Shown here piece by piece: positions 18,601-40,816 of a stretch of 40,816 nt of DNA (position 1 is the stretch's first letter; each line of letters starts with the position of its first letter). The notes under the pieces are model-generated. The model made no database searches and was not told where the DNA came from. It saw nothing but the letters and a program-made list of their open reading frames with translations. The translations under genes and the position numbers were made by a program. Source of the stretch: Rhizaria sp. SCN 62-66 (Eukaryota); contig MEDY01000281.1 in assembly GCA_001724265.1 (NCBI GenBank), positions 1-40,816 on the forward strand. Reading direction: 5' to 3'.

Positions 18601-21600
18601 TTCACGGCTGTTGCTGTCGTCAATGTCGTAGTCAATGCTATCGTCGCCGTTGTCGTTCCGCAGCGTGATTGCGAGCGTCACAGTCTCTGTAACGGGCGCG
18701 CGCAGCGGTGCAGTAGCGGGGATTAGCGGCAGTGCCAACGGAGCCAAATCCTCAAGCCGCAGCCACACATATGACGAAGCCCACGCGTCTGCGCCGGCCC
18801 CAGCAGCCGCGGCCTCAGCGGCGTCTGCGTCTGCGCCAGCCGCAGCGGCGGGCGCCAGTCCGCGGAAAGACAGCGTGTGCGGGTTCGAGCCTAATAATCC
18901 CTCTGAGGCGTCGCCCAGGGGCGGGAAATGCACCAACACGGCGCCCACCAGCGGAGGCAACGGGACACGCATGAAGGTTTCAGTAGCATTTCCACTTGCC
19001 GCTTCCATGGCAGCAGCTGCAGCGTTGTTGCGGTTTTGCTCAAGCTCAATGCCGTCAGATCGCGCAGGAAAAGAAGCGGAGCCGCGGGAAGTAGCAGCGG
19101 GCAGCGGAGGCAGACGCAGGTGTAAACCTAGCGTCCCCGCCGTTGGCGTAATGTTTGCACTCGTCATCGCGCTTGCGCGTTCAGAGCCGTGGCGCAACAA
19201 ACCTGGAAGCGGCGCAGGCACAAACATGCCGCTTTGAGTGGCGCTTAGCGTGTCACCGTGACTTTCGGTGCCATTTCCTTGGTACGCGTAAGAGTCCGCT
19301 TGAGAAACGTCGCCTTGGCTGCTCTCAACAGCGTTAAGGCGGCTTAACATCCCGGCGCCAGTGTCGCTGTCCACCATACTAGTCGCGCTGCGCACGCTGC
19401 CGCACGACACTGAGCGCGCACCAGAACCAGAACCGGACTGAGAGCGACTGCGTTGCATTGTCGCTGCCGCGCTAATGTTATTATTCTCCCGACTGGGGGA
19501 AGTACTGCGTTGGGCGGATGATCTTACTGTCACCGCGACAAAGGCCGTATTTCCTGCATTGTTGTCCTCATCGCCATCGGCATTGTTGTCACCGTTGGCA
19601 GCGCGCATTGCAGCCGCTGCAGCCGCTGCCTCAGCTGCGGCCACTGCACCGGCACCACAGGGCGCACATGCGACGATAGTACCACACCGCTGCCTTGCGG
19701 CCAGAGTTGGCAGCGTCTCCCGCATTGCTGCTGCGGCTGCCGGCGTAAGCGCGACCGTCCGGCCGACCAGTAGCGCTGCCGCTGCGCCTGCTGCCGCGCG
19801 CGCCGCGGCGCCCACGGCCCGCACTAGCGCGCGCGGCATTGCGCTCTCGCCCACAGCGGCCGCCGCAGCGGCTGCAGCGTCCACAGCGGGGCTTGAGCTG
19901 GGCACACGGACTGAGATTGAGAGCGAGGCCGCAGCGAGACCCCAGAGGTCGGCGCGGCGCGCGGCGCGGGCGGCGGCGCCGGGATCCGGCGGCTGCGGGA
20001 AAGGGCCCGCCTCGCTGGGGCCCTGAGTGAGCCCTGCCTCGATGCTGACATCAGTGGGGAAGCACGACACGTAGTATGCGAGGCATTGGGGCAGCGAGCG
20101 AGGCAAGCAGGGGCCAAGTGCGGGTGCAATGCGCTCGGTGACGGTCACGGTTGGGCTTGCGCCCACAGGCATTGCGCGATTGGTGCTAGCCACGGGCATT
20201 GTGTTATAAGCGGACAACGCGGCAGTGCTAAGTTTTGGTGCATTGCTATTATCGTTTGTGTTTGCCGTTCCGTCGTTGGTAGGGTCTGTGATGAGGATGT
20301 GTGTGTTTACAGTCAGTCCCGCGTTGGTAGAAATCTCGCTGGCTACCACATCAATCAACGTACGCGGAGGCCGCGGTAACGCGCGCTTGGCATTGCTGCT
20401 CGTGTCGGTGTCAATGCCGCTACAGTCAAGACCCCAGCGCCAGTCATGTGCGCGTGAGGCAAGACCCGCTGCTGCAAGCCCAGCGGCGGCCGTGGGTAAT
20501 GGCATAGCAATGGTGACGGCAGCTGCAGTACCGGGAAACACCAGTCCTGCGCGTGGTGCGTCTTGGGATGCGTTGCTAGAAACGTGGTCTTCAAGCAACG
20601 CGTCGACAAATTTAGCTGCACTGGGGGCGCTGTGACAGAGCGGCAAGGGACTTGTACGAACCGAGCTCTGACTGTTTGCGTCGAGCAAAGACAACATGTC
20701 GCAGTCACCGGCCTCAATCCACCGCTGCAGTACTGCCGTGGCACGGGCACTCAGCGCGGCGCGCACAGCCTTCCACGCTTTAGTTTCAACCGAGGAAGCA
20801 ATTTCCTCTTGATTGTCAACACAGTCATCCGGGCCGCATTTGTTAGCAGTAGAGACGGCAAGCGCCGTGACCGCTAGCGCAAGCACAGAGCCAGGCTTTT
20901 GCACCCAAGCACTCGATTGCGAGCTTGCTGACGTCGACTTGCCTTTACTATTTGTAAGTAGCACTGGGGCCGAGTCAAGTGCAGTGACCGAAAGCGGTCC
21001 ATGACGTGGCGCCGGCGCAACAAACGCGAGCGGTACTACCCTGTATAGAAGAGCTGGCGCAGCCGCAGGCGTGCCCACCCATGGCGCACTGCTACTGCTG
21101 CACGGCTCAGCATTAGTGCTGCCGCCATCGCGCTCTTGGTGCTCCTCAGCAACGCCGGTATACATGCGTGACTGCGCGGCGACTGCTGGCTCGTCGCTAG
21201 CAATGGGCGCAACGCGCACGTGCGCAACGCTCTCGCGCCAGTCGATAAACTGCACGACGCCCGGCACTGCGCCGGCAGCAGGCGGCACCGTCACGGAAAC
21301 AAGGGAGCCTGCGCGCAGCGGCGGAGTAAAGGCCCCGATAACATCAAGTGCTGCAGCCGCTAGCGCAACGTTTTTTAGCGCACAGTCAGTCGATGTGGAG
21401 CCATTGTCATTAGGGTCAAGAGAGAGTGCGGAAAGGATTGACTCCACTGCTGCGGCGTGCCAGGCTAATGGGGTAGGTTGTGATAACACATGCGCGAATC
21501 CCGTTGCAGCCTCCTGTTTGCGGTTTCCGGGACTTACAGCGGCACACGCAAGCAGCGTCAGTGCTGGGTCACCGCGTTGTACTGTAACAAGTGCGCGCAT

Positions 21601-24600
21601 TGCCAGGACTAGCGTCTCACGCACGCGCGCACGCAACGCCAACAGTGCAGCCGCCGAGCCCTCACTGTCCCATACCCACGCGCGCGCACTCTTGCCGTGA
21701 CCGACGTTGTGCTTTGTGACCGAGAAGCCGATAACCGCGTTGTCTTTGTGCTGCAAGTCCGCGCTCGAGACAGAGGCAGCGCCACGCAGCCAGAGATGTT
21801 CGTCACCGGCGGCCGCGATAGTACAAAGCAACGCTCGCGCGACACACATGTTCTCATTTGCGACACCATCACAGCTGCTGTTGACAATGCTAGCAATAGC
21901 CGCGCGGGGCGCACTAATCAACAGCGCAGCGGCGACGAGCTCTGCAATCGCGACCGCAACAGCGGCCGGCACCCACATTTGCTCTGTAGCACTGCTGTTG
22001 TCGCACTCACTGCCAATGTCGCGGGCGTGCGCGGGGGAAACGGCGTGCCGCAATAGCTGTAGGAGCCAGAGAACGTGGTGACGAGAACGGCCCAGCTCGC
22101 AGCGCACGCAGGCCAGCGCGCGCGCTGCTGCAACAGCGGCAACCGTGAGCTCAGACCTGACGCGCTCGCCAGCCGCGACTCGTAGTCGCCACTGACGCCG
22201 CAGCACAGCCCTCACTTCAGCTGCAGCGCCAGCCTTATGTTGTAGCTGCTGCTGTTGCTGGACAGAGGAAGGCCGCGGCGAAAAGGACGGGGGCGACAAC
22301 GGAGGAGAGCTTCGGTGCGACCGGTGGCTCTGTGTGGGCGACAGAGACAGCGACATCGCTGGTGACATCGGTCCTGCGCCCGTGCCGACGCTAGTGTGCG
22401 CGGCGGGAACTTGCTCCCACCAGCGCGATAGGTCAAAGAGCAGTTCGGCTTCTACCTTGCGGCGGTCTGCCAACTGTGCAACAGTGCCAAACGGCGCGAT
22501 ACGGTCTGCGAGTGCAAACGGAATTGTCTCGTCAAAGTTGTTCCGCCAGCCGTCAAACGTCACGCGCACAGCGGCCGCGTGTACCGACACCACACGAGCA
22601 AAGAACCACTTGCCGTGCAAATCACGCGCGTCAACAAGATGGCCCGGACGCAGACTGCGCAAAAACCGGCGCTGCGCTGTTGGAGACATGAGCGCACGCG
22701 CAGAGGCGACGGAGCGTGGGGACAAAGGGGTCGGAAACGGATGCGACTGTTGCAAGTTGCTGTTGAGCGGCTGTTGTTGCTGAGTCTGTTGGCGTGTTGC
22801 TTCTGAGTGTTGGCGCGGGCGTTGGCGGGACCGCAGCCTTGCATACGGCGAGCGCGGGCGACGCCATGAGCGCTCGCTATCGTTGTCGCCGTCGCCGTCA
22901 CTTTCAATGCCAACCCGGTCGTCAAGCGGTGTCTCGTCATCACTGCTGCCAAAGCTACTGAAGCTGCCGACGCTGTACATGCGTGAGAGCGCGGTCAAAG
23001 CATCTACTTGCTCGATGTTAACGCTGGCTTCTACATCACCGCTCACATGTTTTGCGTACGCAGGCCCGGCTTGAACACACCGTGGGAACAAAGGTGCTAG
23101 TGCTGCAGTGCTTTCGCCTTGAACCTGGCCACGAGCAAGCGCGTCCTGCGAGGCGCAGACACGTGCAATGTCGGCTGTGTTGTAGATGGCCGACACAAGC
23201 GCCGACCAGCGCGCCGCGGCGGTGGGCGGAAGTGGCGGCAAGGCATTTGGATGTGGCGGTGCAGCAGCAGAGAGCACTGACGCGTCAAAAATTGAGGACT
23301 TTGTGGCCAAAACCGTTGGCGTCACCGCAGTACCCCCCTGAGGCGTCTGCGACACTGTTGGCCAGAGGGCGAAAGCACTGCCGTTGGCTCCGCGTTTGCT
23401 CACGGGCGGCATCCCGGCACTGTGTGGGTGCGGATGCGGTTGCTGCTGCGTCATGGCTGTTGCAGCAACGGCTAACGCGCCCCCAGCTGTTGAAGAGTCT
23501 TGCCTGCCACTCCCGGGAATCACAACAGCATGAGTCGGCAATAGCGGTACAGCCACAGCGTACGACATTCCCTTGCCGACAACAGTTACATTCTCAATGC
23601 CATCAGCGTCATCCAGTCCCGCAACTGTCGTTGTGGTTGGCACTGCTGCATGCGCAGCGGCAGCGGGTCCTGGCAGCGTCAGCACGCTTGCTTCGCGGTC
23701 CCACACGTGGCTCGGCACAAGTGGCGTCTTTGCTGCAGAGCCCGCAGAGCCAGTGCTTGCAGCCTGGCCTGCGCCCGCGCTTGTGCTTGGTGAAAGCAGA
23801 CCAAGGCCGCGCGCCACAGCCCAGGCTGAGGGGGTTCCTGGTCCGGCGGGCGTGCGTGGCGGCCACTGAAACGCGCCGCCGCGGTGCGCTGCTCCGCTGC
23901 CAGTACCAGTGCCAGCGCCAGTGCCAAGTGCGCTGGGACGGCGGCCAAAAACGCCCGCGGTTAAGCCAGTGCCGTTACGGTGTGCGTGGCCGCCAAACGC
24001 GCTGTTTGCTGGACTTGCTTGTAGTAAAGACGCGGAAGAGGGAGCGGAAGGTGTGGCTAGCGGGACGACACCAAATACAGGCGAGGCAAGCGGCGACGCT
24101 AAGGCAGCCGGGTGATCAGCGCCCAATCCTGTTCCAACTCCGGGCGCAAAGGTGACGCGGGGACCTGTTGCAATTGAGCCTGTTAGCAAAGCCAGTGGCG
24201 CTGCCGGCGCGTGGGTGCTGTCTGCAAGCGGTGACGCCATTGAGATGGACCCGTCGCTGTCTTCTCCGTTTGCGTTTGTACTTGCGCTGTCAGTCATCAG
24301 CGGCTGCAAGCGTGTTGCGCTGCTACTGTGACCTCCAAAGGCAAAAAAGCCTGCGCTGACGGTGGCTTCACGCGCGCGCACTCGCGGCCGGGCGCGCACA
24401 GCATCAACACCACCCGTTGTAGTCACAGTTGGGGAAACAGCACCAGCCAGCGTTGCAGCAGTTAGCGGCCGCGGAGTCCACAGCGCAAATCCTTCGTTGC
24501 TTCCGTTAGCACCATAACTCACTGCGCTAAGACTGTCGCTAAGAAAGCCGTGCGTGTCGTCTTCACTTGTAAAAGCAAGCGCATTTGCAGCAGCCTGTGC

Positions 24601-27600
24601 TGCTGCAAGCTCACCAGAGCTTTCATCGCTGCCAAAAACGCCAGCAGTTGCCGAAGTTGCTGCGGTCCGTGGAGTTGGATGCATATGAGTCTGCGCTTGC
24701 ACTTGAGCACGGATACGCGCCCGGGCCGCCGCATCCGCCCCAACTGACAGCGGTGGCGCCATCACCAGACGCGCGCGGGCCGACAGCAACGCTGCACCGG
24801 GAGCGGTGGCTGTGGCCGGCGTCGGTGCAGTTGTCGCAGTGTCCGGCTCACCGCCGTGCATAAGAGCGAATATATGCGAATACAAGCCGACTTGCGTAAC
24901 AAGCATTGATAAGGCTGGCGCACGCGGAGGCGTGGCGCGCGGCCGCGGCATGGGGGCCAGAGGGCCAAACACCGAGGCCAACGCAGCAATAAGTGCAGTG
25001 ATGGGCGGTTGCCTTGATGCAACCACGATTGCGCCAGCGTTTGGGCTTACAATCGGAGACGCAAAGGCCGCAATTATGGCACTCTGCCCAGGGCTTGGTT
25101 CGCTGGCTCCAACTTCGTCTATAGGGCTGGCGCCTTGACTTTCGCGTTCGAAGTCAGCGACGCTTAGGTTGTCGGCAGCTTGGCTTTGAGGCCCGTCTAA
25201 CATCGGCTGACTAGCATTCATTGTCAATGTAAGCGCAAGCGGCCGCATCAGCTCCTTGCGCGCTGTAAAGGGCATTACAGAGCCCCTCCACGTCCCAACC
25301 CCACTGATGCCTGAACTCGAGCTTGCGCCAAGGCTGGTGTTCGCTGCACGCTGCGAGGCGATTGCGGCGGCCGTGTCAGTTAAAGCCGTGTATGTTTGCT
25401 GCATCTCAGCAGCCCACAGCGCCAACGCGCGGGCTGGGACCAGCGCATCAGCCCCTGCGCTTGCAATTAACGCGGCGGCCACGGCACCAAGCCCGCGACA
25501 CTGTCCTGTTGCCGCTGCTGCGTCAGTAAGCGCGGCAGCGGCGCGGTCCATTGCAGCAAGTTCCAATGCGCAGCGGTCAAGAGCGCTGCGGGGCATTACA
25601 GGCAGCTGCGCCAGCCATACCCGCAACGCGTGCCGCACGCCGCTCTCAACAGCGGTGCGGCGCAATCCGCCGCCCCAAAGACCGCAAACCGCAGCCCCGA
25701 GCGCATGCACGCTTGCGTCGTTCGATAAAGCCACAGGAAAAACACGCGCGGCCCAATGAGCGGTAACAAAAGAGTCGGCGCACGCAGGGGCCGTCCGCGC
25801 CACTGTGCGCGCCTGCTGCCTTATCGAGACTACTCCAGCGCGTGCGTGCGCGATAGCCTCTGCAGCGCCGGCCGTGGCAGCCCTTGTAAGCACAGTCTGT
25901 GCGGACAAACAGGACGCACCATAGCGCAGCGTACGCCGCAGCCAGAGCCCGCGCAGCGTCTCACCAGTGCCAGAACTAGAAGCAGACGGAGGCGCAGCGT
26001 CAGGTGCGGCTAATGAAGTTGCGCGCGGACGAACCCAGTCGCCCGTTGGCGCCGCGGCCAGCGCCGCTGTGGCAAGCGGGGAGAGCAGCTGCGCCGCCGC
26101 GTGTGCTGTAAAAACCGCAGCAGCGGCGGCCACGCTCGGCGCAGTGGTGTTAGGACGCAACAACAGCGGAGGCGCAGCAAGGGCACCGGCTAGCGAGCCA
26201 AGCACGCGCGAGCGCACGCGCGCTGTGACTGTCAGGTGACGCAGTGCGCGCAGCAGTGCGCGGCGGCCAAGGCTAACGTCCGCGCAGGCAAAATCAGATA
26301 ACCAGCGCCACGATAATGACATGACGCCAGCACCAGAAGTGGGGCCGCGCAAAAAGACAGTTGCCGTTAGGGTAGGGCCAAAAAAAGGAATTCCGCGCGG
26401 TGGCACAACAAACACGGGCGCAAAGGCAAATGTAGGCAGACTGCTTTCCGGCTGGTGATGATGATCAGCGTTGTTAGCATTAAGAGTTGCAAGGACTCCG
26501 CTGTTGCGCCGGCGCCGGTTTGCGTTGAGACACAAGTAGCAGCACCTTGGGCAGTGTTTTTGCGCCGCTTCGTGACTGCTAACATCGCCTAAAACTGGAG
26601 CTGCGCATGGATCGCTGTCAGCAGTCTTGTTTGCAGGAGAGCTTGACTTTGATGGCTCAGGTGTGTGTGCTGTACCACGCAGTCCAAGAGCCGGAACAAC
26701 AAGATCTTCAACCACAATTACTGGAGCTGCGAGCAAAGAACGCTGTTTTTGCAGCAGTGGCGCCAGCGACAAAGACCGCGAACGCGAGCGCGAACGGGAT
26801 GTGTCGGCAGTGACTCCAAGCTTATCCCCCAAATCTGCTGTGGCAGCGGCGGCGCGGTGACCGTGGATCGTGGTGCGCTGCTGGGGCGCAAAACCAGCAC
26901 GCACAAAGTCACACCGCCGTGCCCACCGTCGTAGCGTTGCTTGCAGCGCGAGCGACGGGACAAACAGTCCTTCGTCGGGAGTTTCACTTTCACTCTCGTT
27001 GTGATTGCTGTTCGGAGCGCTTTGCGGTCGCAGTTTTAGCGCCACTGCGAGTGCGCCGGCCGCGTCAGTGTTTGGAGCTGGTTGCACATACCCCGCGTCA
27101 ACTGGCAGCAGCGGCAACACCGCTTTGACTTCGCTCGCAGGCATGCTATTCGATATCGAACTCGAGCTGGATCTTGCATTAACGGGCTTTGTTTCAGCAG
27201 CGACCCACTGTACAAGCGAAGCGTAGCGTGCGAAGTCTAGGCGTAGCAGTGCCAGGGCTGGCTGACGCACCCCGTCAAACGCCGCGCGCGCTAGCCGCAA
27301 GAGCCATGAGGGCAGCAGCGGCGCCGCAGTAAGCCGCGCGCGTGTGCGCAGGTGCTGTGCCAAAAGAGCGTGCGCGTCACCAGAATGCGCAAACGCAGCG
27401 AATAGTTCAAGCAGACTTTCAGCACCACTTGCGGTTGCCGCTGCTGTTTCAGCTGCGGCGTCAATCGCGCCGTCCGCGTCTGCGTTTGCACAGCAGCACC
27501 AATGTGCGCTCTCAAGCGCCACCCGCGTTACAGCTGCCTTCGCCTGGGCGGACGCAGAGCGCGCATTGCTCAAAGACATTTCGTTTGCTAAAAGCGCTGC

Positions 27601-30600
27601 GACAAAGCGCTTTTCTACTTCAAACACGCTACTCATGTCGAAGGCACCGGCGCCGCCACCAAACTCGCGCAAGCACTGAGCGATAATAGTAGCAACAGTT
27701 TCAGCAGGTGACAGTACCATTGGTAGCTGTGGTAGAGCGGCAAGCGCGGGGGGCGCAGTTGTAGACGTGCTTCGCGACTGTGGATGCAGCGGTGGCAGCA
27801 CACCCAGTGCGCCACACAGTGTTAATGCCGACGCAGTCGCAGAACTACTACTCGCACTTGCTGAGGCTAAGAACGCGGGGCTTTGACTGTGGGCGCTGAG
27901 TGCTTCTATCCACTGAGTGCGCGCAAGTTCCGTAATACTTGCTATGCGCGTGCGCATCTCGGCCGCTGCTGCAGAGGTTGCGGGCAAATTCGACGGAAGT
28001 ACCAGCGCGTTACGCAGAGTGTCCAGGATACCCGGCCGATATGGCACCGCAACAAAGTCGCGAACAAACGCCAGCTGTGCAGCCTCGCGTTCCCATTGTA
28101 AGCAACAGCTACTGTTGTTCTTGTTGAGTGAACCCGTTTTTGCCGCTGCCGAGGCTGCGGCGTCCATGTAGCGGCGACGGCGCGCGTCAAGCGCCAGCGT
28201 GCGCGCTGCAGTGGCAAGCATGCGGCGCAGTAGTGCGGCGCCAACTTCCGGCCGCGCTGGCGGAAGCAGTGGCGCGGGCGGCGGCGGTAGCGCTAGCGCA
28301 GGCAACAGCGCAGTTGCAACCGCTTCAGTAACAGTCGAACCTGACAGGCTACTCTTGCTACGAATGGGTGTGCGCGCAAGGCATGCTGATAGCCTTTGCG
28401 CAGGAAACGCGGCACGTTTACGGTACAGCAGTAAGACAATCGCTTTATACGCGCGGTGAAGCGCAGGCGGAGTTGAGTTTGGCGGCATTAGCGTCTGTGG
28501 CGGCGGCAGCAGCGGAATCTCACGAAGACTCGGAGTGCGTGGGACGGCCAGCGTCAACGAGGACACAAGTGCGGCTGGACTTGGTGCTACCGGCGCAGCG
28601 TATGCACGTTCATACAGCGCTCCCACGCTATTGTCTCCCGCGCTGCCGTTGGTGCCCATGCCATTGTCCGTGTCAGTTTCATCACGGCCCAACCCACCTT
28701 CACCGTCTGAGAGCGCATAGCCCACGCCTTCAGCAAACAGCGGCAGCTGCGACAGCGCCGCTGTGCTTGCTGCACCAGCTGCTGCGTTTGCAGCTCCACG
28801 CGCTGCATATGCGTTTAATAGCGCCGCAACTGCAGTGGTGTTGCCTGAGTCGATCGCGCGATCGTGACTCTTGCTTGGGGCGCTAACAACAGCTGCCGGA
28901 TTGCAGCCGGCTTCAAACAGCGCAAGCGGTGCAGCTGCAACAAGTGCGGCCATGCTGTTCTGGCGCAGCGCAGTAAGCGTGACAAGAGGCAATCCAGCAA
29001 GCCAGGGTAGAAGAGCCGCGGCTGTGCTTGGAGACTGCTGAATAACACCGCATGAGCTCCTCAGCACTGCCTGCGCTGCAGTCTCCCCGGGTGCCGCGTT
29101 CACACTGTCACCCCCGTTGTCGGACATTGCCAACGTGGTAGACATCGCTTCAACACCTGCAGCCGCGGTGGCGAGCTCTGCAGCGCTGACAATAATGTCG
29201 CCAAGCAGGCCACCACCAAGCGCACGCAGTGATGCGCGCGTGGAGCCGACCGCTGCTGTACCGACACCGGCCAGCGCGACCGCGGCACGCGCACGGGCAG
29301 TTGCCACAGCAAGAGTCTCGCACGCACTCGAGATTACAGCACCAGTTGCGCCATCTGAAGGCGAGAGCAGCAAGCGGAGTGCAGCAGCCTGTCCGGCGCT
29401 AAATGCGCGCGCTGTTGCCTGCTGTGCGGCTACTGTTAGCAACGCAAGCTCTCGCGCTGCGCGCGCGGCACCGTGCCCTGACAAGGTCTCAACAAGAGCG
29501 CATTCAATGGACGGCAACACGCTTGATAATGCTAATAGTGCGTTAGCCGTTGGCGCGGTAATCTGTGCGCGCGGAATGCCCGATGCGTGAGCGTATGGCG
29601 GTGCCGCATCGACGCTGTTACCTGCTGACGTTAGCAGCACGGAGGCAACTGTCGCTACACCGCCGCTAAGTGTCGCTGCACGCTGAATCCGCGCCTCCGC
29701 AAGCAGAGGCACACGGTCCAAGCCCCGGGCCGTCGCGCGCGCTGCGTCAGTTAACGGCGCCCACAGCAGCCCGGCGCCGCGCTCCGCATCAACGAGCGGA
29801 AGTGCAAGCGCGCGTGCGTCAGGGTCAAACGAGAGGAATCCGCTGACTCCGCTCCCGGTCAGCCCGCTGCTTCCACCCAGGGGAGCTGCCGCGACAACTA
29901 ATGCCGACGCGCTCGCGCCTCCGTGGCGAGTGGTGGCAGCGTTATGCGGAGTGTTTGAACACGTCAAGGGCTTCCTTATCATTGTCCACGCAGTTTGAAA
30001 AGAGGTTGTCAGATTTGCGGGATAAATCATCAGCGGCGCAAGTGCATATGCCGCGGGGTCTTGATCCGCGCACGGTGTGGCGCCAAACATAACGCCGCCG
30101 CGCGCGCCAGCCGCCGGTCCGCACACGCGCTCCGGCCAGGCCCTGTTGCGCGAGACCGTCACTTCCCCTTGCTCGTCGACGGTTTCCGGCGACGGCGGCC
30201 GCAACGCCCCGCACGCGCGCGCAACAGCGGTGGCAACCGGCGGCAATACCCGCGCAAACCGCGCGCGCGCAAGCGTGGAGTGCGCGGACAGCAGCGGCAC
30301 AACACAGTCGGCGGGGACAGACACACCCAGGTCGCCGTCCTGAAACGTGACTTGATAGCTGCCGTCGGCGTTGACTGCGCGCACAATTGCGGGGTAGAAA
30401 CTGCCGCTATTCCACCGTGCGCGGACCTCGGTACCTGCGCGGTTCGGCGGCGCACTGGCGCTTGAGCCCGTGCAAGCCCCGGCGCTAGAGCCAGCGACAG
30501 CGCTGAGGGGCGGATGCAACGAGTGCGGCAGCGCAAGCGCGGTTTGGGGATCGCCAGGGCCCGCTGCCGCAGCGGCCGTGCGCACGGGCACCGCGGTAGC

Positions 30601-33600
30601 GGCGGCGGCAAAAGGGAGCGGCGCAAGCGAGGGCTGCGTGGCAACAGCGAATATGGCCGTGTCAGTTGGCAGCACAAGTCGGGCCAGGGTCAGCATTGTG
30701 TGGTTGCAAAGCGCCGCGGCAGCAACCGCCGCGGGCCCCGGACGCGCAGCCAGCGTCACAAGCGCCAACGCGCTAGCGGCTGCTGCTGACCCGTGCGGAT
30801 GTGTCGCCGATACCTTAGCCAAGACTGACGGCGCGGCAAGCAGCGGCACGGTGGCCGCAAGACCTGCGCGACTGCCACAGCCCAACAACAACAGCGGCAG
30901 CGGTAGCGGTAACGTGCTGACTGTACCGGTGGCGCCGGCCACTGGTGGTTGCGGCCAACCGGCAGCGGCGCGTGGCAGCAGAAGCTCTGCGGGCGAGACG
31001 GCGAGCCGCGCAGAGGAAGCGCCCCACGGCCACCACGTTGCACCCACTGTGTGATCGCTGTTACTGTCGAGCACACCGGGTTGGTACGCGAGACGTGGTG
31101 CAACAGAAACGCCGGGAAGCCGATGCGTTGCTGTGGGATCGGCCGCAGTGGGCGCAAGACCGGTACCCCATGCAGCGGCGCCAAGCCCGAGCAGCACCAG
31201 CTCAGCCTGCTCTTTTGCGTTGCTCAGAGTCGTGCTATTACCGTTATTCACAGAAGCTGCAGCAATGCGAGCAAGAGATGTTGTTGCAAGCGCACGCTGG
31301 CTTTGTGAAGGATAGAGTAGTGGAAACGCAGCAATAAAAGCACTGCGGAGCGCGAACTTTATAGCACTGGCTGCCGGAAGTGACATAAACCACGGTAAAG
31401 CGGGATTATCCGATGTAGTTGTTGCCGCTGCTGTGTCGTTTTGCTGGGCAGCTTGTGAAAACAAAGCAGTTTCACATGCAAAGCGCCACTCAAGCACTGC
31501 GCGCTGAGCCGGTGACAACGCGACGCATCGTGCCGGTTCCGCTATTGAGGCACGCCCCTTGGAAATGTTGTGAGCCTTAGTCTGCAAAGTCGCACTTTTC
31601 GCAGCTGTTGTTTCGCTTACGGATTGAACACGCGCACGTGAACATGCAGCAGCAAAGGCAGTGACCTCAGCAGCTAGTGCGTTAGGAGCTGCCGCAAGCG
31701 CAATTAACAAACGCGCACTAATCTCGACCGCAGCTGCAATGACTCGCTCGCTGACTGTGGCAACGGCACAGTCGTGCGCAAGGGCAGCAGTTACGCGTGT
31801 CAGGGCGTGAGCCAGGCCAAGGTTTGTAGTCGTATTATGGCTGCTTAAGCAACACAGTGCAGACATGCAGGCGGAGTCATCTTTACGACTTGCATTGAAC
31901 GCGGAAAAGACTCCTGCGTTTTTAGCGCCAACAAAAGGTCGGATTGCTGGCGCGAGCTGGGTACATGTGAGCGTAAGCGCAGCGCGAGAACTCACTTGCC
32001 ACAGCTCACGGTCGCTCCACAGCCCGCTATTACCGCTGCATGTTAGCACAATCGCCGCGGTGGACGCTGAGCACAGTGCGGTGGGCACAACGCCGCGCAA
32101 CACGCCTGTGGCTGCGTCCCAGTACACGCGCACGGATGCAGGACGACTGTAGGCGTTTTGCACAGTGGCAACAGCGGTGTCGACAACGACATCCATGAGA
32201 GGCAGCGGCGTGTGCGACAAAGGATCTACAACAAGCGCAGTCTTTGCCCCGTTTGTTTCACAGCCATTCAAATTGCCACTCGTGCACATTTGGTTGGGAA
32301 ATGGCGTTACCACATTGTGGGCGGCAGTAGTGCAAAGTGTTGCGCTTACCGTTGCTGTGGCGGCGTCAAATGCCCACATTGATAGCGACTGCGAGAGAGC
32401 ATTGTGCAGCACAACCGCCGTTTGCGCGGAGTCAACCAATGAAGTACCAACATTGGTGTCGATCAGCGCAAGAATATCCTCATTGTCAACATTGTTGAAG
32501 CAGGAGCGCTTAGGTTTTGCAAGGCCAAGGACAAAGACACAAGGTTCGCATACAACGGTTGGATGGCTGTCACAATGAGAACACTTGCAAGAATACATCT
32601 CGATTTGGTTGCTACTTTTGCTCGTATTGGCGTTGGTAACGTTTGCGTTATTTGTCCCACAAACTGCGCAAATGTCGACTGTTTTGATGGTTTGAAGCCG
32701 TTCCTGTGTTTTTTTGCGTTGTAGAATTGTTGACATGACTGTGGCAATGGCACGCGCAACAGGGCAGCTTGTGACAGTGCTGCGAGCAATAGCGTCGATA
32801 GCACAGAGGCCGCTGAGGCCTGCCAACTCAAATAACGCAGGCGCTGCAAGAGAAACTGCAGCAGGCAAAGATGACTGCAAAGCGTGCGGCACCAAGCCAG
32901 ATTTTGCGCCAATAGCGACGCTTTGAAGCTGCAGACTGCTGTCTGAGCCGCTTCCCACTACTGCAAACAGCGCGCTGCGCGCTTTGTCGTAGAGCAATGG
33001 CGCCACAGAGAACTTTGCGTTTGTCTTGACGCGGACTCGCTCCCACTCGCCCTCGCCTTTGCTTACTGTCGCAGCCACACAGGCTGCTAGTAAGCTTGCA
33101 AACACCCCGAAGCCTGTTGTGGCAGCCGCTGCAGTGCCAACCATAGTGGTTGAGGCTGTAACTAATGTCCCACGCAGTAACACCGAGGTCGGCCTCTGCT
33201 GCTGCTGGGGTTGCGACGCAGACGGTGACAGCCACGCGTTGCGCTGCTACTGACTGTTACTCAAGCGTGCCCAAAGCGCGCCGCGAGCGGCAAGAAACTC
33301 GCAGACGCGGTCACCAATGGATACCGCAACGGGAGCGCCGAAACCGCGCCGGGCCGAGTCACCAGCCCCCGCCAGCGTCGCGACTGCTCCGGCCAGTGCG
33401 CTGCTGATATTCTCAGGGCTGAGGCTTGCATTAAGAGCGGCGACAGCCGCTGCCGCGGTGGCCACAGAGGCTGCGGCAACGCCAGCGCGTGCAAGTGCAA
33501 GAACTGATGTGGCAACTGCGCGTGCAGGAAGACCAAAGTCCCCGATACAGAATGCGGGTATTGGTTCGGTACGTCCACTTAAGCCCGCGTTGTGAGGCAG

Positions 33601-36600
33601 CGTAACTGTCAGAGGCAGCGGTTGCAACGTATGTGCGTCATAAACAACACAGTTCCCTGGCGCTAGCGGAGATGTCACGACGAGAAACGACTCCAACGCC
33701 TCTGAAGAGGGGACAAAAGCAACACTTGCGCCAGGCAGAAATGCAAGCACCGCCGCCGCCGCGTTGCTCGCATACACGCGTCCACCCACCGTCGCTGAAA
33801 TAAAGCTGCTCGACTCGCTGTTATGCCCACTGCCGACGTGCGCGCTAGGAGCAGTGCTCGAGCCGCTGCGTACGGAGGCGCGACCGGTGCCAATTCGCTC
33901 GAGGCCGCGCTGTGGCGAGAGCAAGAACACCCAGTGCCCGCAGTCACTCGCGGCGATTGCGACTGTGCCGGCGTCGTCGCCGCGACTGTTATCACCGCCA
34001 AGATCAGTATACTCGTTATAATGATCTTTCATATAACCTTCATCGTAGTCGTCATGGTCAATGCTGCTATACCCTCCAACTAAGCTGTTGCTGCTGGCGG
34101 GACTGGATGCAGTTCCAGCAAGGTGCAAGGCCACAATTGCCTCTGACACTTTAGCGCTTACATTGTTGCTTGAGTGTGAGAGCGCCGTTGTGGGGAGTGG
34201 ATTGAGCGCATTATAAACTGATGAAGCAAGCGCGGTTGCTTCTGCAACGGCCGCTGCGCTGTTTGCGCGGTTGTTATTAGTGCCGGTCACCACAGACTCA
34301 GCCGTAGTTGCCGGTCGCACTGTATTCAAAAGACTCGAGTACCGCGCCCATAAGCCAGCGGCCTCGCCTGAAGTTAAGCCGCCATCAGCAACTGCGCGCG
34401 CATTGGACACGGTTGCCGCCGCAGTTGCAGCGGCGCGCGCGGCGGGCGTATGGAATTGCACTGCGCGGGCTGCGGCTAGCAATAGATCGCGGTACAGCGG
34501 TGTTGTTGTTATTGCGGGCGACAAAAGCGCAGTCGCAAGGGCACACGGGAGCTGCGTTGTTCCTACATGACTCAGCTTTGCATTTGCAGTAGCGCCGCTT
34601 GTGCTGTTGCTTGCAATGTCATTCGCAGCAATGGCGTCAATGCAGGCAAGTAAGCACACGCCGACATCTCCGTGTGTGACGTCGCTCACGGCCGTGCCAA
34701 TTTGCTGCGACTGGGGCGGCGGCGCGCGCGGCGCTGGCAGCTGCGCCTTCGCGCCCACGGCCCCCGCGCAGCCCTCCGCAGGCACGCTTGGCCGGACATT
34801 CACGCCGGCGGTGCCGCCAGGACTTGAATCAGCGTCCGCCACTGCCACAACTGCGGCCGGAGCAACCGTTAGCGCGACGACGGCTGTCGGGGTTGGCAGC
34901 AAAACCCAGTGACGACTTGCCGCTTCGCACTGCGCTGTGTTGCTTGCTGCAGCCGTTCCAGTTGGCATTGCGCTCACGTGCGGCGGGCTCAACCAGACAT
35001 CGCTCGCATCGCTGCCATTATCGCCGTCCTCATGCGAGGCGCCTGCATCGCGCTCGCACCAGTCGCTGTCATCGCCGAGGTCTGCTTGGTTTGAGCTGCT
35101 CTTGTCCATAGTCATGCCTTGCTGCGAAGACAACGCGGTTGCGCCCGCGCCGGCGCTGGCCTTGTTGTTGCGGCCTATGTTCCGCCAGCGATCGCCACCA
35201 GGCAGCGGCTGCGACAGGGGCAGGCGGCCGCTGCTTTTAAGTCCAGTGGCGTCTTCTTCTTCTTCCTCCTCTCCATCCTCTCCGTAGCTGCTTAGTTGTG
35301 AAACTGGCGCGCGCGTGGGCACACATTGCGGCGCGGGCGGTGTCATGTAAAGCTCGTCACCCGGCGTTAGACTGCAAGGTGGACTGGCAACAGGGACGTC
35401 CGCAGTGTTCGTTGCTGACGCTGCTGTTGCGCTTTGCCTTAAAGCATCCGGGGAGCCGCGGGGACGCTTTTTGCGCACACTGCCGCTCGTGTCAGACATG
35501 GCCTCGGCACTGGCACTCCCAGTCGCAATACTGCTTGCGCTAGCGGCTGCTCTTGCGTCCGCAGAGGCAATATCACTGCAGCTGTAGATGATAGGACCTG
35601 TGTCGCGAAGCCACGCGGATGGCAGCGCGCCTAAGAATGCGTGTGATTCCGCGAGATCACGACGCGCAGCACTGTCATAACCAGCGAGAGCACTAACGTG
35701 GACGCTGTCATTCCAGTTTAAGAGCAGCCGGTCAGGGTTATCCTTGCCCGCAGCTGCAACCGCGAGTAAAGCGCTTGCAAACGTACTGGCACCCGCCGCA
35801 GTCACAAAGTCGCAGCGAGAGTCGTCGACAAAAGCGCCGCCCTCTGGGGTTGTGCGTTTGATATAATAGCGCGATTCCGGGACTTTTGCACCCGCGTGCG
35901 ATGATTTTGGGTGCAGTTTTAAAAATGGCGCCAGAGATTGCTTGACATAGGCAGTCTCCGCCCTCTTCGCAGCGGTTTCATTACTGTTACCGACAACCTC
36001 CACACTAAGGGCTGCGTCAAAGTAGCTCGAGCAGACAGTGCTGTTAGCCAAGTTCCACGCCGGAATGTCCGTTGCACCGCCGACAGCGGCGGCCTTCAGC
36101 GCCAGCGCCGCATGCGCGCGCGCCGCGGTCCGCGCTACTGCCGCGGTCAGCGCCAGCTCCGGCTCATCACCCTCGCTGCTGTTGCTGCTGTTGTTGTTGC
36201 TGCACGGCATGCTCTTGCGCAAGTCTGCTTGTGCGGCTGCAACGCCCAGCACTGACGCTGCACGTGCCTCACCATCGCTGCTATGGAGACTATTGAGACT
36301 CTTGCCCGTAACGTCAGGAGTGCTCTGTCCACTGGCGGTCGCAGAACGGCTCGAAACAGCGCGTCCTTGCGGACATTGCGGCCTGTGTGCCGGCGCGCGC
36401 GATGACAGCGGCCACAGCTGCGGCGCGGGGTCGTCGCGACACGTGCACTCGGACCAGGCAGCCTGAAGCGTTTGTGTTAAGTTGTCGCACTTTCCCGAGT
36501 CTAAGTCACCGTCACCATCTATTGCAGCTGCCGCTCGAGACTCAGCGGCGGAGTCCGCAACTGCCTCCGTCTCGGCCTCAGCGTCGGCGCTGCCCCAGCC

Positions 36601-39078
36601 GCCGCCGCGCGCGCCCGCGTCAGCCATGCGCCACAGCCAGCTCACGCGGTCGCCCGCGGCCGCAGTGGCGCCAGGGTTACCGCCAACGGCCGCCAGCAGC
36701 GCGTCGCGGCACTCACGCACTGCCGAGGCCGCCGCGTTTGACCCAGCACGCGTGCCCGCTGCACCCGCGCCGAGCCCCAGCGCTGGCCCCGAAGCGCCGC
36801 GCGCTTCTGCGTCTGCGCTTGCGCTCGTCGTCGCCACACCGCCAGTCGAGCTGCCCGCCGCAGCGGCTGCCGCTGCTGCGCTGGCATCCGTGTCGGCCGC
36901 GAGCGCGGCGACGGCGGCGTCGCACGGCGCGTTGATGTTGGTCACCGTAAGGGCGCCCTCGTCGGCCGCGGCAGAGGGGTACAGAGAGAGCAGGCCTGTG
37001 GCGAGACCGCCGCCGCCGCCTGCGCCGCCCGCAGCAGCCGTGGCCGCAAGTGCTGCAGGCAGGGACGCGCCGAGGGCTGTTGCGCCGTTGGTGTCGGTGA
37101 ACGGCACTGCTAGCACGCCGCCGACCCATGGGCGCGGGGCAATCGAGCTCAGCAGCGGCTGTGCAGCGCAGTGAGACTGGGACTGCTGCTCTGGCACAGA
37201 CTGCGAGTGTACCTGCAGCTTTAGCTGCGTGTGGTGAGGCTGAGGCGGCAGTGATTGCGCGTCAGGTGGCGCGAGCAGAGACTGCGACTGGAGCTGGCTC
37301 TGGGCAGTGTTACCAGCACGGCTGCCATGGTTATAGCTGTTGCCCATAACAAGAAGGGGAATCGTGGACTGAGCACTTGCGCTAGCGCTGGCGCTGTGGT
37401 GGTTGTCACTGGCCGCAATGCGAGCGGCCCACGCAGCCTCTTTTGCCTTGGCCTTTGCTTGAGCGGCAATTTCGTCGCCGCTGACGTCAACATCACCAGT
37501 GCTCGGTAGGCCTGCTTGTACAGCGCTAGCTGCCACCAATGCGCTGCTACTGCTGCTTGGGTTCATTTGCACACCGGTGCTTGTTGTCGCAAGCACACCT
37601 TCTTCTTTCTCATCACCTTCGTAGCTGTTGTCTCGGTCACGCATCGGGGTTTGCGCGGACTGCGTGGCGGCATGCGCAACGCAGCTCTGCTTCAGAGCAC
37701 GCGTGTCAAGCCACACATCGCCGCCGAGCGAGACTAATGTGCTGACACCCTCGCTCGACTCAACCGATGAGTCTCGAGCCGTGCTTGATTCACGATTTCT
37801 GTTCACACCCGCTTGATTGCCACTGCTTTCAGCATCTTCCTTGTTGTTATTGTATAGCTCATGCAGCCTGCGCCAGTGCGTGCGCGGGGCCGCCTCTGGC
37901 ACGGCAGCCGCAAGCGGCACATCCGCGGGTAACCCGTAGCTGCGCACTGCCACGGACAAGTCGTCGCCGCTGATGCCGCCGCGCATGCACACAGTCACCG
38001 CGCCTGCGCCCGCGCTATCGCCTGCGCTGCTGCTGCTAGCAGTGGCCGTGGGCTGAGAGGAAGTCGGAGGCTGAGGCTGAGGCAGGGGCAGCGACAACGC
38101 GCGCCCCGGTCCGGGGCCGACCGACGGCAGGACTAGCGACGTCACGGCCGCCAGCGCGTCAGAGAGCCTTGCTGTCAGCGCGAGCGAGGCTGGGGGAAAA
38201 AGCTGCGGCGCAGTCACGACGCTTGCTGCACCGGGGCCGGCGTAGGCGCCTGCTACGACGCCAGTGTACGCGTCGCCTGCACAGCTGTATACGGCGCCGG
38301 TCGCGTCTGACGGCAAAGATAGCAAGGCCGAGTCAAACAAAGTGCCGACGCCGCTGGTTCCAGCGCGCTGCCGCTGCAAAACCTGCTGCGGACGCGCAGA
38401 GTGGCCGTTACTTTGATGCTGTTGCTGCGTTTGCCGTTGCTCCAGCCGAATCTGCTGTTGCTCTTGCTGCTGGCTTTCGCTCTCTTGCTCGCGCTACCAC
38501 TGCGCCTGCGCGGCCGTTAGATCAAGCGAGTAGCTGTTTGCGCGGCGATTTTCCATTGCAGCGTACGTGCGGAAGGGCGCGAGACGCTTCGAGGCGAGCG
38601 GCACGCACTCACAATACTTGGCGGACCAGCCGTCGTAGCTCACCCACGCGCTCTCCACGCCCAGGCGGTCAATGCGCGCGAAGTACCACGTGTTGGTGTT
38701 GTCCATGCAGTCAACCACGCTGCCTTCGCGCAGACCCGCGCGCCAGCGGGCGTCTCGCGCGGCGGCCGAGGCCGCGGCGGAGGCTGCGGCGGGCGGCAGC
38801 GGCAGTGATAGCGGAAGGGGCGGCGGCGGAGGCAGGCTCCACAGAGGTACAAGCGCAACCGCGGCGGGAAAGGTGCGTGAGTCGGAGCAAGATGGCGGAA
38901 GCGACAGCCATGACTGTGTTAAAACCGCGTTTGACAAAGGCGCAGGAGCAGCGACTGAAACGACCGGTGCCGCCGGTGCTGGAGCCAGAGGGGTAGTTTC
39001 AGCGGCAGGGGAGGCAGCGGCCGCAGCAGGCGCACTATGAGGCCCAGAAAGCTATGAAATCGCCGAGCGGGGGTGCAT
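9826..39078 (-). CDS. Giant (~9,750 aa) HECT E3 ubiquitin ligase, HERC1/HERC2/HECTD4-like; 5 internal TAG read as sense
   Basis: Track ORFs 38494..38937, 33247..38379, 15493..33183, 14920..15483 and 9826..14847 share one frame (all left ends = 1 mod 3). I translated each gap and found only TAG at 39052, 38494, 33247, 15493 and 14920. Candidate ATG at 39076-39078 (AAC ATG). TAA at 9826-9828 follows a complete HECT C-terminus. Confidence 0.85.
14920..14922 (-). other. In-frame TAG, sense codon or the 3' end of a 48-nt intron
   Basis: Context MSIL*LTGIAQ. The segment 14967->14920 also reads GTAAGT...TTCTGTAG (48 nt, frame-preserving). Confidence 0.5.
15493..15495 (-). other. In-frame TAG, putative sense codon
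   Basis: CGC GTT GGC GCC TAG CGC TGG GGC GTG. GC-rich on both sides, with no good splice signals. Confidence 0.8.
22483..22665 (-). other. Agenet/Tudor-like domain, copy 2
   Basis: FLRSLRPGHLVDARDLHGKWFFARVVSVHAAAVRVTFDGWRNNFDETIPFALADRIAPFGT. Confidence 0.75.
30301..30438 (-). other. Tudor-like domain
   Basis: AGTEVRARWNSGSFYPAIVRAVNADGSYQVTFQDGDLGVSVPADCV matches the G..V.A.W....Y.A.I.......Y.V.F.DG pattern. Confidence 0.75.
32539..32670 (-). other. Cys-rich putative zinc-binding module
   Basis: CAVC...YSCKCSHCDSHPTVVCEPC contains three CxxC pairs. Confidence 0.45.
33247..33249 (-). other. In-frame TAG, putative Gln
   Basis: AGT CAG TAG CAG CGC = SQ*QR, directly flanked by two CAG Gln codons and followed by SQPQQQR. 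Confidence 0.85.
38494..38496 (-). other. In-frame TAG, putative Gln
   Basis: Context AQAQW*REQESESQQQEQQQIRLEQRQTQQQHQ. Confidence 0.82.
38563..38745 (-). other. Agenet/Tudor-like domain, copy 1
   Basis: WRAGLREGSVVDCMDNTNTWYFARIDRLGVESAWVSYDGWSAKYCECVPLASKRLAPFRTY aligns by eye with copy 2. Confidence 0.75.
39052..39054 (-). other. In-frame TAG at codon 9 after the candidate ATG
   Basis: ATG CAC CCC CGC TCG GCG ATT TCA TAG CTT TCT GGG. It could alternatively be a splice acceptor (TTTCATAG). Confidence 0.55.
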
Positions 39079-40143
39079 GTTATAGTGCCCGCAATAGCTC
39101 TAAGTTGGGGTTTGACGATACTCCTTGGTGAAGGAGCTGCACTCGCGAGAGCGACGAGGAAGTGATGAGCAACGGCAAGTGAGGGAGGGCAATGTTCAAG
39201 TGTGCATTGCGATAGAAACATCACAGTTTCAAGTTGGCTGTTTATATTATAACATACAGTTAAACCGTGCTGATACATATCTTACATTGATATCTATTTC
39301 AACGATATAAATATTGTGAGATGGTTCGTAAAAGAGACAGGCGGGGGAAGTCGCCTGTTGCGTTGAGTCTGTGCAACGTGTGACCGTGTTTTTAGGAACC
39401 AGTAAGCGCACCAACCTGCACTGCACCATTTGACTTGACCGATGCTCGCGAACTTGGTCGAAACGGCAGCGAGTACCTCGAAACAACGCGAACGTCGTTA
39501 ACGTTAAAGAAACGTCGCTTGATTTACCACCGACGTTTTGTTGCTTGCATATGTATTTGTGTTTGAAAAGGCGTTGGTCTTTCGTGTTTTCTGCAAGACA
39601 TTGTGCGAGCCGTCCCAATCACTGAATCTAGCACTTCGATCATCTGCTTCCAGCTAGGCCAGCGAGGTCAAACAAGCACCTATGGAGGCTCTACTAGCGT
39701 TTTCGAATAATAAGTCTAGCGATGTATACGCTCATCTTGTGTTTATGTGCTGCATGGGTTGGCTTTGCTGACTGAGTGAGCCCAGCGGCGGTGACGCGGT
39801 TCGCACACTCCGTTCTTCGCCCTTGCCGCGACACCACGCCTCGTGTCATATACCTTTTGCTACCAACAATAGCGCCTACCGCAGAGACAGACCAGGTCTA
39901 TTTCTACAACTTCCCAGCATTTTTTTGCTTACACTGTAAACTGCCGATTGCTCTATCATTTTGCGCATACTACACCAACCACAACGACTCGACGACGAAC
40001 AACGACTCTCACCACTCACTCACGTGCCACACCTTTGACTTCTCAATTCTCACCTTCTCACAAAAACCAACGTTTTATCAATACGCGGTTCTTGCTGCTC
40101 CCCCGCCTTCTGCGCGCGCGCTTTAGCTTTCGTTCCACGCCCG
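39079..40143. promoter_or_regulatory. Divergent intergenic region, probable shared promoter/5' UTR region
   Basis: About 1.06 kb of lower-GC DNA between the head-to-head HECT gene (-) and Aha1-domain gene (+). No specific element was identified. Confidence 0.45.
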
Positions 40144-40582
40144 ATGAGTTGCCCACAGTGCCGCGTTCCGAGTGACGAAGAGCACCTCGCCTCTGGCTGG
40201 CACAAGTTCAACATGCGCCTCACGGCCGAGGGCAAGATGCCCATCATGCTCGACAACTACCTCCGCTTTGAGAAGCCCAAGGAGGACGCCGCCGCCGCGG
40301 GCCTCGCCACGCCGGTCGGCGCCGCCGAGGGCGTCGCGACGTACTTGGAACTCAACAAGCGCAACGTCAACCAGTGGCACTGGGAGGAGACGGACCACAC
40401 GGAGTGGGCCAAGGCACGCATGAGCGAGCTCTTCGACGGGCTCGAGGTTGCGCTCGGCGACGGCGCCCCCAAGATCACGTTCACGGGCGTCACTGAGTTC
40501 GCTGGCGACGCTTTCACGCATATCCGCAAAGCCAAGTTCTCTGCCGGCTACGAGCTCTCGTTCGGGCTCGACTGGAAGGCCG
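40144..40582 (+). CDS. Exon of an Aha1-family Hsp90 ATPase activator N-domain protein with an N-terminal Rei1/ZNF622-like C2H2 finger; 3'-partial
   Basis: NVNQWHWEETDHTEWAKARMSELF...GDAFTHIRKAKFSAGYELSFGLDWK matches Aha1_N (NxNNWHW and RKxK motifs). Strong GC3 bias ends at the donor G|GTACGT. Confidence 0.85.
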
Positions 40583-40770
40583 GTACGTTGCGCTGTTTAT
40601 TTCGCCATATTATACTGCAACGTGTTTTTATGAACTTTTGTGTTGTGTTTTATTTGAGGCTTTGGCATTGCCAAATTATCGTAGCGCTTTGGCATTATGT
40701 AATATGAATAAGCTCTTCGCTCACTGCTTTCTTTCTTTGTCACTTTATTTCTTGTTGTCGCTTTGTGTGC

Positions 40771-40816
<46 letters not shown>
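40583..40816 (+). other. Spliceosomal intron, 5' part
   Basis: GTACGT donor followed by an abrupt switch to T-rich sequence in the middle of the Aha1_N domain. Confidence 0.75.
40764..40816. repeat. (GT)n microsatellite running to the window end
   Basis: Perfect (GT)19 at 40779-40816 with imperfect GT units upstream. Confidence 0.95.

Follow-up and report, generated by a model that had tools for sequence, protein, structure and literature searches.

A probable UAG-only sense codon, with glutamine as the best-fitting residue, in two long genes of an uncultured GC-rich eukaryote

In NCBI translation table 6, which is used by many ciliates, diplomonads, some green algae and aphelids, both UAA and UAG (UAR) encode glutamine. 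Codes that split the meanings of UAG and UAA are rare, and the available portions of three papers place them in a single fornicate, a single rhizarian and a small number of ciliate lineages (PMC5304391; PMC11687900; PMC10553269). In the same portions of these papers, UAG alone is read as glutamine, with UAA still a stop, in the fornicate Iotanema spirale (PMC5304391), and UAG alone is likewise glutamine in the ciliates Hartmannula sinica and Trochilia petrani (PMC11687900). UAG is leucine in the rhizarian exLh (Sainouroidea), for which 384 in-frame UAG codons are given in 71 genes (PMC5304391), and in an uncultivated phyllopharyngean clade (PMC11687900); a tRNA with a CUA anticodon is argued to be the sole reader that spares UAA (PMC5304391). 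The DNA considered here is a stretch of 40,816 nucleotides (hereafter the window) from contig MEDY01000281.1 of assembly GCA_001724265.1, deposited as Rhizaria sp. SCN 62-66, in which two long minus-strand genes carry seven in-frame TAG codons. UAG is a probable sense codon in these genes, and the only stop codon so read, TAA and TGA being the codons at the three gene ends seen. Taken overall, a rare sense codon TAG meaning glutamine is the favored reading on balance, with glutamine as the best-fitting residue and three informative codons pointing to it.

The locus resembles those of Iotanema, Hartmannula and Trochilia in that in-frame UAG stands within genes, UAA is a stop (here UGA as well), glutamine fits best and a CUA tRNA is expected. 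It differs from them in that the residue is drawn here from the context statistics of seven codons rather than from hundreds of aligned positions, and in that TAG is used at only about 0.6 per 1000 codons, with a bias toward C at the following base (+4) which hints that termination still competes. In the judgement of the authors, the host is also apparently unlike one with a ciliate macronucleus, being GC-rich with long intronless genes on a contig of about 97.5 kb. With the leucine codes of exLh and the phyllopharyngean clade, the locus shares the reassignment of UAG alone, UAA as the main stop and an uncultured protist as host, recovered from sequence data; however, UAG is far denser in exLh, and leucine fits the present contexts worse than glutamine (likelihood ratio ~60). 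The likeness to table 6 is that a stop codon is read as glutamine. Here, however, TAA never occurs in frame and closes both long genes where the protein should end; it is thus a stop, and the code is not table 6. The pattern fits a known kind of nuclear code, in which UAG alone is reassigned and TAA and TGA remain stops, and of which this would be a further member.

Reading frames interrupted by TAG alone

The two genes, and the parts of gene 1 to which the TAG codons are related below, are as follows.

9826..39078, minus strand: gene 1, a giant intronless gene that encodes an E3 ubiquitin ligase of the HECT type; some 9,750 codons when begun at its first in-frame ATG (39078, a putative start)
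38542..38748, minus strand: MBT/Tudor-like "DGW" domain 1 of gene 1, between the TAGs at 39052 and 38494; matches protein P0008
30334..30435, minus strand: Tudor-like domain 2 of gene 1 (Pfam Tudor_2, E-value 3.2e-5, 24 bits, under the curated cut-off of 31.4)
22459..22668, minus strand: MBT/Tudor-like domain 3 of gene 1, paralogous to domain 1 (the two align locally with a score of 126)
9841..10131, minus strand: HECT domain C-lobe of gene 1 (Pfam PF00632, E-value 7.2e-18, profile positions 214-300 of 306)
9826..9828, minus strand: stop of gene 1, TAA then A; C-lobe alignments to solved ligases end at most about 10 residues from the query end and the chain end
2915..8947, minus strand: gene 2, encoding a low-complexity protein; 2,010 codons, two in-frame TAGs, ending in TAA then G

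The TAG codons are listed next, the asterisk standing for TAG in the translated contexts, together with one further string and the spacer that holds it.

39100..39102, minus strand: TAG in the frame of gene 1 but ahead of its first ATG; probably 5' leader sequence
39052..39054, minus strand: TAG in gene 1, ninth codon after the putative ATG, AIS*LSG, +4 C; its coding status hangs on the inferred start
38494..38496, minus strand: TAG in gene 1, AQAQW*REQESESQQQEQQQ, +4 C; 22 residues past MBT/Tudor-like domain 1 and ahead of a Gln-rich tract
33247..33249, minus strand: TAG in gene 1, AGT CAG TAG CAG CGC, SNSQ*QRN, +4 C
15493..15495, minus strand: TAG in gene 1, RVGA*RWGVL, +4 C; surroundings not Gln-rich, two residues from a Trp
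14920..14922, minus strand: TAG in gene 1, SVMSIL*LTGIA, +4 C; hydrophobic setting
7391..7393, minus strand: TAG in gene 2, PPWR*ARQHPQQQSQ, +4 G; within an extended Q/S tract
6119..6121, minus strand: TAG in gene 2, NLGH*TAPV, +4 A
2099-2104, plus strand: CAG TAG string inside the non-coding spacer 1802-2914
1802-2914: non-coding spacer between convergent genes, GC 0.448, with 8-22 stops in each of the six frames

The earlier note on this DNA had built its case for glutamine on four strings. Three of these stand as described, the CAG-TAG-CAG at 33247 and the Trp-TAG string at 38494 being in frame in the long minus-strand open reading frame, and the TAG of the poly-Q tract at 7391 being in frame within the Q/S tract of gene 2. 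The fourth, CAG-TAG at 2102, is present as a string on the plus strand, but it lies in the stop-rich spacer and is therefore irrelevant to decoding. Beyond the cited codons, in-frame TAGs were found at 39052, 15493 and 14920 in gene 1 and at 6119 in gene 2; that at 39100 is upstream of the first ATG, and was therefore left out of the coding count.

Gene 1 has five TAG, no TAA and no TGA in frame (9,750 codons), and in this interval the two alternative frames of that strand hold 76-77 TAA, 79-90 TAG and 112-260 TGA. Gene 2 has two TAG, no TAA and no TGA in its 2,010 codons. Together, the two genes thus contain seven TAG and neither of the other stops across 11,760 in-frame codons, with no frameshift. 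Gene 1 reads continuously only with TAG translated: with TAG as glutamine, it is a single open reading frame of 9788 residues at 9826..39192, whereas under table 11 it becomes five open reading frames of 147, 1710, 5896, 187 and 1673 residues in the same frame, with a single TAG between neighbours. These pieces abut with one codon between them, and none of the AT-rich spacers of 0.9-1.1 kb that separate real genes lies between them. The full-length reading is required to reach the catalytic HECT lobe, which makes up the last 97 residues of gene 1 and is downstream of all five TAGs. The PF00632 match is above its cut-off, and 65 HECT sequences of the Protein Data Bank (PDB) match the C-lobe, the best being HUWE1 (9.3e-12), Pub2 and TOM1. 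A ...SHTCF... stretch is also present, which we take to hold the catalytic Cys; the HECT N-lobe was not recognized. All three gene ends seen carry another stop with a purine at +4, namely TAA-A in gene 1, TAA-G in gene 2 and TGA-G in the gene at the left-hand end of the window.

According to a nonsense-mutation model built on the codon usage of these genes and the observed ratio of transitions to transversions (79:25), new stops should be 51.6% TAG, 23.5% TAA and 24.9% TGA, so that seven TAGs among seven interruptions have P = 0.0097. Contigs from other sequencing runs were also compared over a 20-kb stretch, outside which lie the TAGs at 33247, 38494 and 39052; that at 7391 is in no listed contig from a non-source run. 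Such contigs lose rare variants, and DNA can be present in RNA libraries. Over 13022-15630, a contig that run X4 of another study contributed shows 12 differences, all of them listed and none at 14920-14922 or 15493-15495; these TAGs thus predate the split between the strains. A polyA-RNA contig of run X7 spans 6085-6490 and keeps the TAG at 6119, its three differences all being at other positions, so that this TAG is neither spliced out nor edited in that contig. The same TAGs are present in contigs of other runs and studies, so that assembly error is not their cause. TAG at 15493 is also read in an X5 contig (15002-15525), which was not counted because it extends just 30 letters past the codon, one short of the length required for bridging, and because its library is of uncertain kind.

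Among the listed strain differences (40 of 111), 9 fall in the spacer 8948-9825, 5 in gene 2 (1 synonymous) and 26 in gene 1. In gene 1, 13 of the 26 are synonymous against a neutral expectation of 32% (P = 0.046), a weak sign of purifying selection drawn from the 40 of 111 differences listed; the ratio of nonsynonymous to synonymous rates (dN/dS) among the listed differences is ~0.48. The X4 strain diverges by about 1% in the spacer (9 in ~860 bases) and by 0.46% in coding DNA (12 in 2,609). The spacer at 8903-9569 has little or no X5 or X7 cover, and was not used as evidence of transcription.

From the reading frames, the interruption pattern and the strain comparison, TAG is very probably translated as a sense codon. 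In the mechanism proposed, TAG would be an ineffective terminator and a rare sense codon, while TAA and TGA would terminate. The predicted reader is a tRNA-Gln with the anticodon CUA, one change away from CUG; an ordinary tRNA-Gln that out-competes a weakened release factor is a less likely prediction. The window contains no tRNA, no Rfam family and no gene for eRF1.

The residue assigned to TAG

Given that TAG is translated, glutamine is the likely residue. The tests of context that point to it were calibrated on the two proteins themselves, and assume that the TAG sites are a random sample of the sites of the encoded residue. For the seven coding TAGs, the numbers of Gln within ±15 residues are 0, 9, 5, 0, 1, 12 and 0, a sum of 27 to which the sites at 38494 (9), 33247 (5) and 7391 (12) contribute most. 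Sets of seven true Gln sites have a mean sum of 23.0 and reach at least 27 with P = 0.36, so that the observed value is typical of them. By comparison, the mean sum is 6.2 for random residues (P of reaching 27 = 0.002), 7.0 for Trp sites (P = 0.0009), 6.6 for Leu sites (P = 0.0024) and 5.1 for Glu sites (P = 0.0008). At least five Gln within ±15 are found at three of the seven TAGs, as compared with 2.7% of all residues (binomial P = 0.0006) and 26.9% of Gln residues; in gene 1 alone, such neighbourhoods surround two of the five TAGs (P = 0.0045).

A further classifier sorts the neighbours within ±20 residues into five bins by distance, and recognizes true Gln sets in 73% of cases. It gives scores of 26.9 for Gln, 6.3 for His, 2.1 for Ser, 0.8 for Leu and -0.4 for Trp. 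Eight other residues were compared with Gln. The calibrated likelihood ratios in favor of Gln are ~1,500 over Glu, ~170 over Trp, ~100 over Arg, ~60 over Leu, 31 over Ser and 11 over His, the lowest, and the ratio over Tyr is far above that over Glu. The earlier note had held that Gln fits better than Leu, Glu, Tyr, pyrrolysine or Trp produced by editing. With this classifier Gln does rank above Leu, Glu, Tyr and Trp, but a narrower test at ±2 or ±3 residues places Trp first, and four of the seven sites are uninformative.

The same note placed its sites in non-conserved stretches that offer no alignment proof, and indeed no database relative covers any of the TAGs. The alignment of domain 1 to P0008 ends 22 residues before the TAG at 38494. 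Domains 1 and 3 can be aligned to 16 residues before this TAG, where an ungapped continuation pairs it with Q and a gapped one with W; the paralogue alignment was rejected as evidence on the residue, as it is ambiguous between the two. No repeat copy covers a TAG informatively.

Points against glutamine and rival explanations

Several observations weigh against a sense codon TAG that means glutamine. TAG is rare, with seven occurrences against 351 of CAG and CAA, and three gene ends are too few to show that TAG never stops. The Gln signal comes from just three of the seven TAGs, the other four being uninformative. Moreover, the single change most likely to create a TAG is that from CAG, followed by that from TGG (from codon counts and the mutation model), and Gln tracts tolerate change, so that enrichment of TAG in such tracts is expected in part under any meaning. 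Trp comes first in position-specific classifiers that cover ±2 or ±3 residues. True Gln sites would give the observed Trp-minus-Gln score with P of 0.003-0.01 at these two widths and 0.05 at ±5; at ±1, where the two residues score almost alike, P is 0.14. This ranking arises because three of the seven TAGs have a Trp within two residues, namely 38494 (TGG TAG), 15493 (TAG CGC TGG) and 7391 (TGG CGG TAG), a nearness with P = 0.005 if TAG were Gln and 0.10 if it were Trp (3 of 8; similar for 3 of 6). C follows five of the seven in-frame TAGs, as compared with 25.7% expected (P = 0.015). When 1,001 residues around 15493 and 14920 were searched exhaustively with HMMER against 1.84 billion representatives, there were two matches, both of them the window's own pieces, and word-indexed protein searches returned only the window's own pieces and P0008 among the best 8000 (in one search, 480) word-sharing candidates, whose lists were probably crowded by low-complexity words. 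Finally, the slightness of the evidence for purifying selection on gene 1 counts on the same side.

The nearness of Trp raises the rival that TAG is a sense codon for another residue, of which tryptophan, read by a tRNA-Trp with the anticodon CUA, is the most interesting, with Leu, His, Ser and Glu as further candidates; the Gln-rich settings would then reflect just where CAG to TAG changes arise and are tolerated. In C. elegans, the amber suppressors are genes for tRNA-Trp(CUA). In the present proteins, 14.5% of Trp residues but 4.9% of Gln residues lie within two of a Trp, and TAG as Trp would give WW, WRW and WRW, when gene 1 already has WRW three times and W.W seven times among its 117 Trp. 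To these may be added the narrow classifiers, the place of TGG to TAG as second commonest route, and a precedent for a residue other than Gln in the UAG = Leu codes of the rhizarian exLh and a ciliate clade (available portions of PMC5304391 and PMC11687900). Against this, the wide context is improbable for Trp, Leu and Glu alike (P = 0.0009, 0.0024 and 0.0008), and the combined classifier, with its ±1 and ±2 bins included, still prefers Gln by the ratios given above for Trp, Leu and His. The Trp signal also emerged after 20 residues and several window sizes had been tried, and a literature search covering titles and the starts of abstracts found no nuclear code in which UAG is Trp. The signal is therefore best described as an unexplained minority observation which arose after many comparisons; another residue is unlikely, and the bolder variant in which TAG means Trp is very improbable. 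The three Trp-adjacent TAGs would also suit functional Trp sites restored by A-to-I editing of UAG to UGG before translation, with the code unchanged. The earlier note had asked for RNA to be compared with DNA on this point, and the X7 polyA-RNA contig, which reads TAG at 6119 and differs from the DNA elsewhere, speaks against editing at that one site, the only one covered and not among the three adjoining Trp; editing is given almost no weight. Pyrrolysine decoding of UAG is also considered unlikely here. Scans for tRNA, Pfam and Rfam families found neither pylT nor pylS nor a methylamine methyltransferase-type gene in the window, and the gene structure is eukaryotic.

If TAG is instead a true stop, the frames would be decaying pseudogenes, or separate genes that share a frame by chance. 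The pieces are indeed long open reading frames under table 11, which public gene callers list as separate proteins (P0002, P0003, P0004, P0006 and P0007), the proteins are mostly orphan low-complexity sequence, and dN/dS is just moderately below 1 among the listed differences. However, decay or chance would have to account for 11,760 codons free of TAA, TGA and frameshift, for interruptions that are all TAG, for pieces that abut by a single codon without an AT-rich spacer, and for TAGs common to strains, one of which is crossed by polyA RNA of gene 2. In addition, the piece with the MBT-like domain would lack an ATG before the domain, as no in-frame ATG precedes domain 1 other than that at 39078. 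True stops are thus very unlikely. Low-efficiency readthrough would keep a standard or ambiguous code in which premature stops in weak contexts are read by near-cognate tRNA-Gln with no dedicated suppressor tRNA. In the available text of a study of yeast, a Q-stop-Q arrangement, C at +4 and the Gln content of the transcript all raise readthrough, with Gln inserted (PMC13192750), and a Q-stop-Q, +4 C and Gln-rich surroundings likewise mark the TAGs here: 33247 is an exact Q-stop-Q, three TAGs are in Gln-rich neighbourhoods, and the +4 C of five TAGs is found at none of the three genuine stops. The great rarity of TAG also agrees with readthrough. In yeast, however, which keeps the standard code, the yield of full-length product is about 1.6-8% per single stop (PMC13192750, available text), while here five serial TAGs precede an intact, stop-free HECT lobe, which would leave essentially no full-length ligase. 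As five serial readthrough events could not supply the ligase, and as four of the seven TAGs have no Gln context, pure readthrough is a minor rival and quite improbable. The age of the TAGs, which predate the strain split, also counts against it. TAG is also a common intron end, and the codons could be YAG 3' ends of very short in-frame introns, or errors of sequencing or assembly. By eye, a CTAAC branch-like word and a GTACGC do precede the TAG at 38494. Errors are contradicted by the recurrence of the TAGs in other runs and studies, and introns by the RNA contig that crosses 6119 without a gap and by flanks that are GC-rich and coding-like, in contrast to the AT-rich sequence that follows the Aha1-like exon at the right-hand end of the window. 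A short intron at 38494 was itself rejected, since the span from GTACGC to TAG is 73 bases, which is not a multiple of 3, and its removal would shift the frame and cut the tail of a conserved domain. Artefacts of either kind are accordingly about as improbable as editing.

In other eukaryotes, C at +4 is known to mark a weak termination context and a purine a strong one. The rarity of TAG and its bias toward +4 C suggest that decoding of TAG as a sense codon still competes with termination. An early and still ambiguous change of UAG to Gln, with rare TAGs kept to weak contexts (+4 C, Gln-rich) and termination carried out by TAA and TGA with a purine at +4, is an attractive but tentative and rather doubtful extension of the glutamine reading; at such a stage, decoding may proceed without fully dedicated machinery.

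The genes, their host and its code

The product of gene 1, which has about 9,750 residues, of which 21% are Ala, resembles the giant HECT E3 ligases of the HUWE1/TOM1 class in that a very large protein ends in a HECT C-lobe. It differs from them in its length and Ala content, in that the C-lobe alone is recognizable, and in having three MBT/Tudor-like domains, the rest of the protein being without a detectable relative. Domain 1 is 47% identical over 62 residues (E-value 2e-15) to residues 169-230 of P0008, an otherwise unrelated protein of 2674 residues from ENA, and domain 3 has weak PDB matches to the MBT repeats of SCMH1 and SCML2 (E-values 0.03-0.3). Outside the DGW domains and the C-lobe, no relative of gene 1 was found by the exhaustive search of the 1,001-residue stretch or by word-indexed searches elsewhere. 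P0008 contains, as judged by eye, a GLRNLGSTCF stretch that resembles the Cys box of ubiquitin-specific proteases, and the DGW domain may be common to ubiquitin-system giants of related protists.

The protein of gene 2 belongs to no Pfam family. It has a hydrophobic, signal-like N-terminus, acidic and Ser tracts, the Q/S tract, Arg runs, ERER-type repeats that extend over hundreds of residues, and a Pro-rich tail. At 3972 and at 4233, inside a 15-base tandem repeat array (3970-4324), 15 bases are absent from the strain contigs (X4 and X7), and these deletions are in-frame length variants of the ERER repeats.

Four genes are present in the window, with a GC content of 0.63-0.81 within genes and 0.39-0.48 between them, and the intergenic spacers are 880-1110 bases long with 39-48% GC. 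The two genes not described so far are at its ends.

2..1801, plus strand: 3' part of a left-hand gene, GC 0.81, with WD-repeat-like stretches by eye
40144..40590, plus strand: first exon of an Aha1-like gene (Pfam Aha1_N, E-value 1.3e-10)

The left-hand gene runs off the left end of the window, has no TAG in frame and no Pfam match, and ends in TGA at 1799-1801, followed by G. All three of its plus-strand frames are nearly without stops, so that the length of an open reading frame cannot by itself choose among them, and frame 2 was picked by eye. The frame of the Aha1-like gene, also read by eye, breaks at a GTACGT after about 40590, and this first exon shows that the host has spliceosomal-type gene structure. 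The window closes (40764-40816) with a microsatellite, (TG)n/(AC)n in 26.5 copies, that follows AT-rich sequence 3' of the exon; this part may belong to an intron, or be where the assembled sequence ends.

The gene structure, the HECT and Aha1 families and the presence of the sequence in polyA RNA libraries point to a eukaryotic host, and the window is best explained as nuclear DNA from an uncultured, GC-rich organism of this kind, present in bioreactor and wastewater metagenomes. Its DNA recurs in bioreactor, wastewater and activated-sludge runs, 10 of the 13 listed rows from 6 studies carrying part of it, although 3 of the listed rows may be the source itself. A scan of JGI contigs found only an identical contig of 6.2 kb (L001) that lies inside the window, a scan of GTDB genome contigs found no DNA of the organism and one unrelated bacterial Aha1-like match (L002), and a scan of IMG/VR gave zero matches. 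In the ESM Atlas, there was no usable match for Aha1, and the HECT lobe matched just generic HECT clusters with scores below 0.9. A literature search over titles and the starts of abstracts, which included wastewater protists, found no paper on this organism.

A further case of a code that splits UAG from UAA would add an independent origin, in a GC-rich eukaryote that recurs across several wastewater and bioreactor studies. Since the public gene calls are split at TAG, standard pipelines mistranslate this lineage. The low frequency of TAG and its context bias would let the ambiguous-intermediate route be tested in a natural organism and, if the early change of UAG to glutamine were true, an "ambiguous intermediate" would be found in nature, its host being a free-living non-ciliate, rich in GC, that recurs in wastewater reactors.

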